IMG/VR virus record: IMGVR_UViG_3300022937_000093
Span: 1-31,087 of that record
Reading direction: 5' to 3' (one strand)
Source of the DNA: a virus
Taxonomy: Duplodnaviria > Caudoviricetes
Length of the DNA stretch: 31,087 nt
Shown here: one piece after another, positions 2,912 to 26,960 of the stretch
How the letters are laid out: every line of letters begins with the position of its first letter
How positions within the stretch are numbered: the stretch's first letter is position 1
Made by a program: the position numbers and the translations under genes
Notes under the pieces: generated by a model
Databases searched by the model: none
What the model saw: the letters and a program-made list of their open reading frames with translations, nothing else
What the model was told of the DNA's origin: nothing

Positions 2912-2942
2912 AATAGGGCGGCTTAGGTCGCCCTATTTTTTT
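2912..2942 (+). terminator. Rho-independent terminator after the capsid gene
   Basis: AATAGGGCGGC-TTAG-GTCGCCCTATT stem followed by a T run. Confidence 0.9.
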
Positions 2943-2994: not shown

Positions 2995-3002
2995 TATAAA
3001 TA
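2995..3002 (+). promoter_or_regulatory. T4-type late promoter TATAAATA upstream of the ncRNA/tRNA unit
   Basis: Exact gp55-type consensus, intergenic, just after a terminator. Confidence 0.75.
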
Positions 3003-3007
3003 TTATT

Positions 3008-3238
3008 GTAAAGTCAAAGTCAATGCTGATTGGCGGTGAACTTTGGGACGCCCCTGGTGACAGCACACGCTGGTGACAGATGGTAAGTACGAAGGTGACG
3101 TGGATTAGTACACTCAACTCTCACATTAACCTTGATTTCACAAAACCAATTGTTTAAGGATATGGTTAATGTTAACCCAAAAACTCGGTAGTCTCGGAAT
3201 CTATAAAGTTAACGCTCAGCCATTTTCCTTTAAATCAA
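3008..3238 (+). ncRNA. Candidate structured RNA / tRNA 5' leader
   Basis: No credible CDS. Helices: 3015-3020/3040-3045, imperfect 3092-3104/3119-3133, 3130-3138/3232-3240 (perfect 9 bp) and 3156-3176/3208-3230. The loop of the last helix is complementary to the downstream anticodon arm. Confidence 0.55.
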
Positions 3239-3316
3239 GGGGGAGTGGCAGAGTGGCTCAATGCAATAGTTTCCGAGGCTATCCAACCGCGGGTTCGAAT
3301 CCCGTCTCCTCCACCA
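3239..3316 (+). tRNA. Atypical tRNA, anticodon CCG (nominally Arg, reads CGG), with Ala-type acceptor stem
   Basis: Cloverleaf: acceptor GGGGGAG/CTCCTCC, A73, encoded CCA; D arm GCAG-AGTGGCTCA-ATGC; anticodon arm ATAGT-TTCCGAG-GCTAT (CCG at 3273-3275); 6-nt variable region; T arm GCGGG-TTCGAAT-CCCGT. Confidence 0.88.
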
Positions 3317-3340
3317 ACTTTCTTTTATTAAATAGTAATA

Positions 3341-3616
3341 ATGAAAGAATTAGAAACATCGTTGGACTGGAAAGACATTGAACACGAACTTAGAGAACTG
3401 ATTAAATCTGCACCTGAGTTTAAATTTGATGTTATAAAATTTTGTACTTCTATTGGAGGAGAAGTAAGAAAACTAAGTGATATTGAAATAGATCTTAGAA
3501 GACAGCCTCGTGATAGCATATTACTAAAACACAAAGAACAATGCAAAAAGATTAACCAAGCAATAAAAGACTTTTCTTCAACACATCTCCTACACTTGTT
3601 TTCTAGAACAGACTAA
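3341..3616 (+). CDS. Hypothetical protein (91 aa, helical)
   Basis: Fills the gap after the tRNA with phage-typical codons; weak RBS; no motif recognised. Confidence 0.7.
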   Translation: MKELETSLDWKDIEHELRELIKSAPEFKFDVIKFCTSIGGEVRKLSDIEIDLRRQPRDSILLKHKEQCKKINQAIKDFSSTHLLHLFSRTD

Positions 3617-3623: not shown

Positions 3624-3692
3624 TGTCAATTTAGGAGCCTACCTTAGAGTAGGACTTATGCGGATATCCACCGCGTAGACCCTAGAACGGCA
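3624..3692 (+). promoter_or_regulatory. Structured 5' UTR (three-way junction)
   Basis: TTTAGG(3630-35)/CCTAGA(3681-86) closes hairpins CCTAC/GTAGG (3638-3653) and TATGCGG/CCGCGTA (3657-3677). Confidence 0.5.
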
Positions 3693-3717
3693 ATATATAA
3701 AACAAAAGGAGAATATA

Positions 3718-4122
3718 ATGGGAAGACCAGTAAACAAAAGATACTTCGGATTACTAGATGACGGTACTAACCTTACGGTAAACGTACAGGTTGGTTCTAA
3801 CTCTGAATCAGAAGAAGGGTATATTATCAGACAAAGAAGTGAATCTAAATTTTTAGTTAACGATACTAAAACAGGAACAAAAACGAAAGTTGGCGGATCT
3901 GGAACTGGTAACGTATCTGTTTGTACACTTGTGGATAAAGCGGCAGGATCATTAGCGGCTGACGAAATGTCACTACAAGGTACACTAGCAGGAACTGATG
4001 GAAATCAAGTTAGAGTTGCAAAACTATATAATAGAACCTGCAGAGACTTTAATAATGTTAGATACAAATGGGAAGTTCAAAACGACTCATCCGAATCTAT
4101 CATGCTTTTAACTGCAATCTAA
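3718..4122 (+). CDS. Hypothetical virion protein (134 aa, MGRPVNKRYFG...)
   Basis: Strong AAGGAG RBS, with its own promoter and terminator, in a late-gene context. Confidence 0.8.
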   Translation: MGRPVNKRYFGLLDDGTNLTVNVQVGSNSESEEGYIIRQRSESKFLVNDTKTGTKTKVGGSGTGNVSVCTLVDKAAGSLAADEMSLQGTLAGTDGNQVRVAKLYNRTCRDFNNVRYKWEVQNDSSESIMLLTAI

Positions 4123-24355: not shown

Positions 24356-25234
24356 ATGGCAGACTTAAAAAGTTTATTAGACAAAGCAACGGCAGAGGAC
24401 TTTGATGCGAATGATCCATCAATGCCTCGTAACAAATATTATTCTTGTCAGGTAACATTTGCTACAATTTGCGGAGTCTCTCATAACAGAGATCAGTGTA
24501 AACACGAATTTTGCTGGACACCTGAACCCGACGTTACTAAAATGAAAATTCAAATGTGGGGCGGCGGCGGAGGCGGCGGCGGAGTCTGTTGTTGTTCATG
24601 GGGTTTCTCTGGAGGCGCAGGTGCTTACGTAGAACTTCAAAATATCGACGTTACTAATTGTAAAACAGAATACCGGATTTGTATTGGACCACCTTCATGT
24701 TGTTCACCTGTTCAATCATGTGGATACAGAGGTTGTAAATCATACATTACTAACGGATACCTAAGAAAATGCGACGGCACAACTTGTGCTGGTAACTTCT
24801 GTGCAGAGGGCGGTATTTCAGGTTGTTCTTTCTGCTTTATGTTTAACTGCTTTAACTGCGGAATTTATATGGATCCAAGATACAGCACAACATGTGCTTG
24901 TTATTTTGACGGTGACCTAGGTTATCCGGGAAGAGTAGGCGGTATCGCTACATTTTGTTCTAACAACAATGCTTGTTGGTACAAACACTATACAATGATT
25001 CCTGCGATGCTTGAAACTTGTAAAGAAAGATGGGAATTAACAAGATTCTGTGCCCAAAATATGCCAGGTGGCTGGGACGGATGTAAAATGGGACAAGGAT
25101 ACCTTATGGGCGGCGGTGGATCGCATCAAAGAGTACCAGGCGTAGGTGGAATTTCAGGTTCTGCTGTCGGTGGAAACTGCTATTGCGGTGGTCCAGGCGG
25201 CCCTGGTTTAGTAAGAGTATCAATGTTTACGTAA
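24356..25234 (+). CDS. Cys-rich, Gly-rich putative fibre-tip/adhesin protein 1
   Basis: AAGGAG RBS; WGGGGGGGGVCCC...GG.GAY and C-terminal PG.GG...G.VRV; 29 Cys in 292 aa. Confidence 0.8.
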   Translation: MADLKSLLDKATAEDFDANDPSMPRNKYYSCQVTFATICGVSHNRDQCKHEFCWTPEPDVTKMKIQMWGGGGGGGGVCCCSWGFSGGAGAYVELQNIDVTNCKTEYRICIGPPSCCSPVQSCGYRGCKSYITNGYLRKCDGTTCAGNFCAEGGISGCSFCFMFNCFNCGIYMDPRYSTTCACYFDGDLGYPGRVGGIATFCSNNNACWYKHYTMIPAMLETCKERWELTRFCAQNMPGGWDGCKMGQGYLMGGGGSHQRVPGVGGISGSAVGGNCYCGGPGGPGLVRVSMFT

Positions 25235-25251
25235 AGGAGAATGAAGGTAAC

Positions 25252-26100
25252 ATGGCAAATTTAAGATCACTTATAGGTTCAGTTAGCGTTAACGACATAT
25301 CGCCTTTACAAGATAAATGTACATTATATTTTCTTCCGCATTGTCAATGTTATTGTAACTCAGACTACGGCGGAAACTGCTACCTATACTGGTGCGTTCC
25401 AGCAGGTACAACAAAAATGAAAATGGAAGTATGGGGCGGCGGTGGATCCGGCGCTGGTGCTTGTTGTTGTATGGGTGGTACACCGGGTGGATCAGGTGCA
25501 TGGGCATACAAATGTTTAGATTCAGCAACAGATTTTGCGGCAGGTAACACATATGATTTATATCCAGGCCCATCAACTTGCTGTGCTTCATGCTGTTGTG
25601 GAATTATTGGATGTAAAGGTTATATTTCAGGTCCAGGGTTAACTAACTTTTGTGCTGACGGCGGTAATGCAGGTCAGACTTGTTGTTTTATTCACTGGGG
25701 TTGGTCAGACTGCGTAGGTAATAGATGCGGTTATTATTATACAAATAGAATGTGTTGTATTTGTTGCAGATGCCATTATGGTTCGGATGGAGGTTCTCCA
25801 GGAAGACCTAGTGCTATTTGGGCACAATGTACTTGTGGATCGTGCTGGTGGAAATTATTATATCACTATCCAGGCGGTATTAACAATACCACAGGTGGAT
25901 TCACAACAACACAAACAATGGGTAATGCTTGTAACCATGAATGGTCACGTTGTGTACGGGGTAACCTAGGTTGGGCAACAGGACAATCAGGTCATTTACC
26001 TGGTGTCGGTGGTCCGAGTGCAACATCATGCGGTGGCGGATGTTGTTATGGATTTCCCGGCGCGGCAGGAATGGTAAGAATTACTTATGATCAAAGTTAG
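25252..26100 (+). CDS. Cys-rich, Gly-rich putative fibre-tip/adhesin protein 2
   Basis: The likely start ATG 25252 (MANLRSL) matches the paralogue N-termini; WCVPAG...EVWGGGGSGAGACCC; 34 Cys in 282 aa. Confidence 0.8.
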   Translation: MANLRSLIGSVSVNDISPLQDKCTLYFLPHCQCYCNSDYGGNCYLYWCVPAGTTKMKMEVWGGGGSGAGACCCMGGTPGGSGAWAYKCLDSATDFAAGNTYDLYPGPSTCCASCCCGIIGCKGYISGPGLTNFCADGGNAGQTCCFIHWGWSDCVGNRCGYYYTNRMCCICCRCHYGSDGGSPGRPSAIWAQCTCGSCWWKLLYHYPGGINNTTGGFTTTQTMGNACNHEWSRCVRGNLGWATGQSGHLPGVGGPSATSCGGGCCYGFPGAAGMVRITYDQS

Positions 26101-26114
26101 GGGTAAATATTGAT

Positions 26115-26960
26115 ATGGCACAACTAAGTTCATACGTTTCGGAATTAAGATTACCAGCAGGATCATCAACAACAGATCTTCCAGCGGGTTGTCAGTTTGT
26201 ATATTCATCAAGTTGTTGGAGTTGTCCATCATTTGGTAACTATCAACAATATTGTTGTTTTGCATTTATTGTACCGAGCGATGCGGCAAGAGCAACGTTT
26301 GAGGCTTGGGGATCAGGCGGCGGTGGCGGTGTGTCTTGTTGCTGTATGGGCGGATCACCGGGCGGATCAGGTGCTTATTCAAGAAAAACAATTCCAGTAT
26401 CAACAGGTTGGTGCTATGACCTATGTTTAGGTGAAGGCGCATGTTGTAATAATGGACGGAACGGATTTAGAGGATGTCGTTCTTCTGTAAAAGGATGTAA
26501 TATTAGTATTTGTGGTTCTGGCGGTAAGCCAGGATGTTCATACTGCTTCCCAGGTTGCGGATGTTACGTAACAGGATACTGCTGTTGTCGTGCTTGGAAC
26601 TGCGGTTGCTGTATTAACGATAGTCCAGCAGAAGCATCCGGCGGAGATTTTAACGTATGCGGTGTTCGTGGATGGATGCAACATAGAGCATGTGGCGGCC
26701 ATTGCTGTCACAAACAACACATTCCATATCCAGGTGGATTGGTTAACAAATGCGGTGGTACCGTTGCTGTACAAAATGGTGGTAGAGGTTTTGAGACTTA
26801 CGAAAATTGTGCGGCTATGAACAATGTGGGATGGAATAGACTTTCTCCACAATATGTACCAGGTATGGGTGGCCCAACTTATTGGAGATGGTCAGGTGGA
26901 TGTCATTGTGGATCGTATGGTGCTCCAGGACTAATTAGAATTACTTGGTATGATAACTAA
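26115..26960 (+). CDS. Cys-rich, Gly-rich putative fibre-tip/adhesin protein 3
   Basis: VPS...FEAWGSGGGGGVSCCCMGG.PGGSGAY...GLIRITW; 33 Cys in 281 aa. Confidence 0.8.
   Translation: MAQLSSYVSELRLPAGSSTTDLPAGCQFVYSSSCWSCPSFGNYQQYCCFAFIVPSDAARATFEAWGSGGGGGVSCCCMGGSPGGSGAYSRKTIPVSTGWCYDLCLGEGACCNNGRNGFRGCRSSVKGCNISICGSGGKPGCSYCFPGCGCYVTGYCCCRAWNCGCCINDSPAEASGGDFNVCGVRGWMQHRACGGHCCHKQHIPYPGGLVNKCGGTVAVQNGGRGFETYENCAAMNNVGWNRLSPQYVPGMGGPTYWRWSGGCHCGSYGAPGLIRITWYDN

Follow-up and report, generated by a model that had tools for sequence, protein, structure and literature searches.

Several described RNAs resemble parts of the locus analysed here. T-box riboswitches control protein genes by recognising 3-4 bases of a trans-acting tRNA and contain a loop-E-like motif, and hok/sok is a cis-antisense switch. 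A second set consists of natural tRNAs that mistranslate. The allo-tRNAs have Ser or Ala identity (G3·U70) together with non-cognate anticodons, and some of them sit near toxin-antitoxin systems; missense suppression of this kind is toxic in Escherichia coli, which was killed by missense tRNAs of Ser identity (PMC5389517). The tRNA-ProX of Streptomyces and Kitasatospora joins the body of one amino acid's tRNA to the anticodon of another and mistranslates (PMC10404621), and the CGG-reassignment tRNAs of low-GC bacteria are CCG tRNAs without A20 (PMC8629427). A20 is the main determinant for ArgRS, and Ala and Ser identity are anticodon-independent, the alanine rule being G3·U70 with G1-C72, G2-C71 and A73 (PMC9976931).

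A preliminary description of the window, the whole stretch of 31,087 nucleotides of phage DNA that was analysed, had drawn attention to a tRNA gene whose leader contains an antisense copy of the tRNA's own anticodon arm. Our analysis indicates that the cassette formed by promoter motif, leader and tRNA is a conserved, apparently undescribed RNA element that is larger than this first account suggested. Judged by sequence, this conserved RNA gene of ~320 bases ending in a tRNA is shared by several large aquatic phages. The explanation that accounts best for the data, and to which we attach about an even chance, is that the element is a default-off missense tRNA for the codon CGG.

Architecture and genomic setting

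The window corresponds to the region of late structural genes in a jumbo phage related to T4 and contains genes for a prohead protease, the Gp23 capsid protein (1719-2891) and baseplate and tail proteins. At 64-69% identity, the nearest annotated capsid proteins belong to Proteobacteria phages with genomes of 285-470 kb. ARAGORN identified a single tRNA in the window, and the RNA element extends from a late-promoter motif through a structured core to the encoded CCA of this tRNA (Table 1). We take the promoter motif to be of the T4 late type; no such motif was seen upstream of the core in lineages D and E. The hairpin and T-run that form the upstream boundary were not among the calls of a terminator scan.

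Table 1. Coordinates of the cassette and its boundaries in the window
Feature	Position	Strand	Remarks
Hairpin + T-run	2912..2942	+	3' of the major capsid gene; upstream boundary, likely terminator; also in cassette-free relatives
Late-promoter motif TATAAATA	2995..3002	+	Probable RNA start; found in lineages W, B and C
Conserved core (long stem, two symmetric GUGA/GUGA internal loops, loop-E-like AGUA)	3018..3114	+	
P1 5' arm	3130..3138	+	Partner 3232-3240, spanning the leader-tRNA junction and tRNA G1-G2
P2 5' arm	3156..3176	+	Alternative partner of antisense strand 3208-3230; equivalent stems in B, C and E
Antisense strand against tRNA 5' half	3187..3231	+	3188-3204 opposite the anticodon arm; 3205-3231 opposite the D arm and acceptor 5' strand
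tRNA, anticodon CCG (3273-3275)	3239..3316	+	G3·U70 (3241/3310), A73 (3313), no A20, encoded CCA
Second TAAATA motif	3329..3334	+	Precedes the next gene; downstream cassette boundary

Two protein-coding candidates were rejected. The 91-aa ORF after the tRNA was considered as a partner protein and is also present in cassette-free relatives, and a conserved leader peptide was dismissed on reading the aligned leaders, in which start codons and frames differ among lineages. A 70-aa ORF at 3169-3381 gave no Pfam or PHROG match. Further downstream, an Rfam freshwater-2 motif (3637-3720; 57.8 bits, above the gathering score) precedes a 134-aa ORF.

Distribution of the cassette

Pattern scans recovered homologs in five phage lineages, designated W (the window, L086/L102 and L091), B (L082/L101 and L087/L105), C (L090/L106, L128, L146 and L183), D (L205) and E (L480). 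Most matches of these scans were unrelated to the family, which accounted, for example, for 5/14 in one scan and 6/27 in another. Identity is about 87% for B and about 71% for C, and the antisense is kept in W, B, C and E. The capsid genes of W and B are 94% identical, which marks these two as close relatives, so the number of independent lineages is about four, three of them with the antisense.

The cassette lies after the capsid gene in W and B, in a tRNA cluster in D, and in C beside a tRNA-Arg with the unusual anticodon GCG, which is located downstream (L487 2987-3063). In E it directly follows a phage-encoded permuted tmRNA of alphaproteobacterial type (L485 10797-11152), which gives a hint at the host group. 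In one W sequence (L102, lineage W2), the run of G where leader and tRNA meet is longer by one G.

The cassette is accessory. The nearest capsid-gene relatives do not carry it at this site, and the core model matched 0/80 records of capsid-gene relatives, almost all of which are fragments. In addition, a contig from an RNA run (X14 record 3, window 2948/3279) represents a B-like relative that has lost the promoter, the leader and the 5' half of the tRNA and retains the 3' half, with a short microhomology at the junction, which indicates that the cassette is dispensable. A survey of 181 relaxed-pattern loci (62 from bacterial and archaeal genomes) contained no further core, 93 metagenome loci yielded no further lineage, and annotated phages and plasmids gave no leader match; one of the scans in this search for homologs covered 38/64 parts. 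Some phage tRNAs called as Ser(CGA) by ARAGORN (L460, L464, L465, L470 and L477) have irregular-looking anticodon arms and no leader core.

Identity elements of the tRNA

In all five lineages, the tRNA has the anticodon CCG and lacks A20. Position 20 is C in W, B and E and U in C and D, and an ordinary tRNA-Arg(CCG) with A20 adjoins the D cassette. Of the elements of a canonical tRNA-Arg(CCG), C35, G36 and A/G73 are present and A20 is absent. The tRNA of the window carries the complete alanine-identity set (G1-C72, G2-C71, G3·U70 and A73; 3239-3241 and 3310-3313). W and B combine this set with a Ser-type D arm and a six-base variable region, the long variable arm having been lost. C and E feature the Ser-type combination of a long variable arm and G73, and the best annotated matches of the E tRNA are phage tRNA-Ser genes. 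The best matches of the D tRNA are tRNA-Gln genes (78%), and it fits the glutamine-type rule of PMC8629427 (no A20, U1-A72, A37, A73).

CCG is retained on two unrelated tRNA bodies with, as read from these elements, three identities (Ala, Ser and Gln). The loss of the Ser-type long arm in W and B, along with the gain of G3·U70 and A73, suggests that this apparent Ser-to-Ala switch reflects selection for continued charging by an anticodon-blind synthetase. A tmRNA would combine an alanine-type acceptor with a tag reading frame and have no anticodon arm. The gene is not a tmRNA by Rfam, as its score of 33.4 bits lies below 47 and derives from the acceptor and T arm only; the anticodon arm is complete and ARAGORN calls a tRNA. 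Annotation tools call it a plain tRNA-Arg and would therefore miss the element.

Complementarity between leader and tRNA

Two structures claimed for the leader in the preliminary description were borne out. The stem of 3156-3176 with 3208-3230 folds as proposed (z -2.1), and 3188-3204 pairs with the anticodon arm (3266-3282) at 16/17 positions; two of the pairs are G·U, and one position is U·U. This anticodon-arm duplex has a predicted energy of -22.0 kcal/mol, compared with -9.5 ± 2.2 kcal/mol for shuffled leaders, and 1/500 dinucleotide shuffles was as good. The antisense proved to be longer than originally claimed, as 3187-3231 pairs with 3237-3283 (z -5.8) and covers the acceptor 5' strand, the D arm and the anticodon arm, so that the leader engages 36 bases of the tRNA. 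When 21 distinct tRNA-plus-leader pairs were compared, the five antisense-bearing family members scored z -5.8 to -8.0, while the other 16 were no better than -2.1. The leader is also the best duplex partner of the anticodon arm across the window, which comprises 31 kb of what is probably a far larger genome. The idea that the anticodon arm acts in antisense on the leaders of phage genes was rejected: within the window and four related records, its exact 7-base complement is confined to the cassette.

Finer details of the original model fared less well. The leader segment had been proposed to form a mini-hairpin with a 7-nt loop, but the closing pair would be U·U, so the hairpin has a 9-nt loop and an energy of only -0.6 kcal/mol, and it does not form in lineage C. 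The kissing-loop geometry built on this marginal hairpin is weak. A second CTCGG (3184-3188) is present in the window as reported, but it is private to lineage W (1/6 leaders checked).

The anticodon loop is invariant across all antisense-bearing homologs, which leaves no variation for the loop-loop covariation proposed earlier. An alignment test of the 17-pair duplex showed no covariation beyond shuffles (368/500), and an asymmetry of G·U versus A·C changes was not significant (8/51 versus 2/37, p = 0.18). In per-sequence folds, the antisense tracks changes in the tRNA: the pair at position 39 is G·U in W and B, G-C in C and A-U in E, and acceptor positions 3-5 vary among W, C and E yet remain paired to the antisense. 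Between W and B, 78/78 positions of the tRNA, 115/120 of the core and 16/17 of the anticodon antisense (3188-3204) are identical, and the adjacent spacers show 6/17 and 5/11 identities, the latter just upstream of the antisense.

A predicted lock on the tRNA

Folding predictions suggest that the antisense strand has two mutually exclusive partners, the P2 arm, which would leave the tRNA free, or the tRNA itself, which would lock it. The energies of the locked and cloverleaf-forced folds are -64.6 and -42.1 kcal/mol in W, -67.3 and -44.1 in B, -73.2 and -51.7 in C, and -79.0 and -58.7 in E. The locked fold is thus favoured by about 20-23 kcal/mol in these four lineages (~22 in the window) in a model that omits tertiary structure and modifications. 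It is predicted to be the minimum after 15 tRNA bases in W and E and after 38 in C.

Lineage D differs from this pattern. It has no antisense (301/500 shuffles were as good), its lock amounts to 5 kcal/mol, and a 12-pair helix of a sequence unrelated to the other lineages is predicted over tRNA bases 1-4. A helix at or over the leader-tRNA junction is therefore predicted in all five lineages, and the absence of the antisense from D indicates that the Ser-derived branch added the anticodon mask. Within the earlier interpretation, the proposal of an anti-tRNA that acts as an off-switch for a mistranslating tRNA is supported by the folding energies, by conservation in W, B, C and E and by the non-arginine identity elements in all five lineages.

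Both predicted folds cover or destroy the prospective RNase P cut site at the leader-tRNA junction. The analysis revealed no unlocking route, so the tRNA may never be released.

The conserved core

The core contains what we take to be two GUGA/GUGA internal loops (3036-3039 with 3095-3098, and 3057-3060 with 3073-3076) and a loop-E-like AGUA (3086-3089). This order of motifs is present in 6/6 sequences from the five lineages. In these six sequences, 102/102 cells are paired and 2/17 pairs feature a two-sided change. The pairing score was reached by 7/500 shuffles, a control that ignores relatedness, and core folding energies did not differ significantly from shuffles (z -1.2 to +1.0). Rfam provided no match for the leader, the core included, at E <= 1.

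Codon usage and RNA evidence

CGG accounts for 3/323 Arg codons in the ATG-started ORFs of the window. There is no special avoidance of CGG, since capsid-gene relatives lacking the cassette use the codon just as rarely (37/5048 versus 6/802); its rarity permits a missense role and does not prove it. All three in-gene CGG codons fall at unconserved columns of a three-paralog alignment. The paralogs in question, three tandem Cys/Gly-rich genes at 24356-26960 (phrog_4205), account for every in-frame CGG among the main ORFs of the window.

Contigs from some of eight RNA runs map to the leader and tRNA at a depth of 2-5; DNA carry-over is possible, and they are no evidence of expression or processing. 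One of these contigs (X4 record 22) spans the leader and the tRNA, likewise at low depth and possibly derived from DNA.

Discussion

For a default-off missense tRNA, the following sequence of events can be envisaged. Late transcription would start at 2995, as the promoter motif suggests, and the leader would, in the predicted fold, pair back onto the tRNA's 5' half, which would lock the tRNA by default. A trigger, probably acting through the conserved core, would then unlock the tRNA, which on the identity rules should be charged with alanine by AlaRS and decode CGG. Alanine at CGG could damage proteins of a CGG-using host or rival phage, at low cost to a phage that hardly uses this codon. The toxicity of missense tRNAs in E. 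coli gives a reason for a lock (PMC5389517). The normal tRNA-Arg(CCG) beside the D cassette would dilute mistranslation, which argues against pure poisoning.

A wider version of this idea, which we consider less likely than not, would make the element a new, riboswitch-like class of phage RNA with a tRNA as its output, in which a conserved sensor domain governs a three-strand switch and thereby the unlocking of a CGG missense tRNA. In this view, the leader would have been reused on unrelated bodies (Ser to Ala, Gln), and the whole would be an all-RNA toxin-antitoxin unit that corrupts host reading of one codon on demand.

Alternatively, the lock could hide a protected reserve of tRNA from host anticodon nucleases, a possibility already raised in the preliminary description. 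Once released, such a tRNA would allow ribosomes to continue past CGG codons while the host's tRNA-Arg is cut or uncharged, and any amino acid would be acceptable. The complete burial of the anticodon arm in the lock is consistent with this role, as are the Arg tRNAs next to the cassette (GCG in C, TCT and CCG in D) and the proposal that phage tRNAs counter tRNA-depleting defences (PMC10264068). We nevertheless consider it unlikely, given that the phage's need for AGA and CGT decoding is far above that for CGG and that lineage D has no mask.

Should release of the tRNA never take place, the entire RNA might be a tRNA mimic or decoy, or its tRNA part only a processing and stability handle for the core. 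This is a doubtful reading, as it leaves CCG on two unrelated bodies and the Ser-to-Ala switch unexplained. It does accommodate the covered leader-tRNA junction in both predicted folds and the observation that some allo-tRNAs appear translationally inactive (PMC5389517). The contig that bridges leader and tRNA also points in this direction, subject to its low depth and possible origin from DNA.

A T-box-like sensor is improbable. Here, the core would bind a CCG tRNA through an invariant CGG and through UGGU motifs, the latter complementary to the 3' NCCA, and thereby control whether the tRNA downstream is released. In all five lineages, a CGG stands ahead of the first GUGA loop, RNAalifold pairs GGUG at this loop with the 3' end of the tRNA, and the loop-E-like motif has its counterpart in T-boxes. 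The bases in question are predicted as stem pairs that close the GUGA loops, however, which is a simpler cause of CGG/UGG invariance; the invariant anticodon allows no covariation, and three homolog loci had no Rfam T-box match at E <= 5.

It is quite improbable that the cassette is a neutral inverted duplication or a small mobile element carrying a copy of its tRNA target, despite its patchy distribution, its absence from the capsid-gene relatives' records and its differing contexts, as pairing segments are kept while spacers diverge, the core has compensatory pairs, four cassette ends show no terminal repeats or target duplication by eye, and the mismatched identity would go unexplained. The suggestion that the leader acts as a sponge to capture host tRNA-Arg(CCG), which would make use of the CGG that it shows in a loop, is highly improbable because cofolding with a single canonical tRNA-Arg(CCG), from L205, gained 0 to -0.5 kcal/mol in W, B, C and E versus -20 to -24 kcal/mol with the element's own tRNA, in a model blind to loop-loop contacts.

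Should the switch of a default-off missense tRNA work as predicted, it would make codon-specific mistranslation conditional by means of RNA alone, and phage tRNA genes would have gained a new use. Natural mistranslating tRNAs are already known, and the missense tRNA alone would add a member to this known kind; the newness lies in the architecture. No mistranslating tRNA with a conserved, structured, sequestering leader was found in literature listings that covered few subscription papers. The allo-tRNAs are alike in their non-cognate anticodons and Ser/Ala identity, but have 8/4 or 9/3 acceptor/T stems, as opposed to the 7-bp acceptor and 5-bp T stem of the window tRNA, and the words CCG and leader are absent from the main text of that report (PMC5389517). 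Their long variable arm is shared only by C and E, and not by W and B. The tRNA-ProX likewise pairs one amino acid's body with another's anticodon, but is chromosomal, has proline identity and typically lies beside a dedicated synthetase gene, whereas the phage element has no shared partner gene; the abstract describing tRNA-ProX does not mention an antisense leader (PMC10404621). The CGG-reassignment tRNAs match the element in lacking A20, but recode a whole genome to one amino acid (PMC8629427), while the identity of the phage element varies by lineage and D also has a true tRNA-Arg(CCG). The leader itself is comparable to T-boxes and hok/sok, with complementarity of a leader RNA to an anticodon and exclusive three-strand folds. 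Unlike T-boxes, the phage element pairs about 36 bases in cis, and the product that it would control is the tRNA itself.
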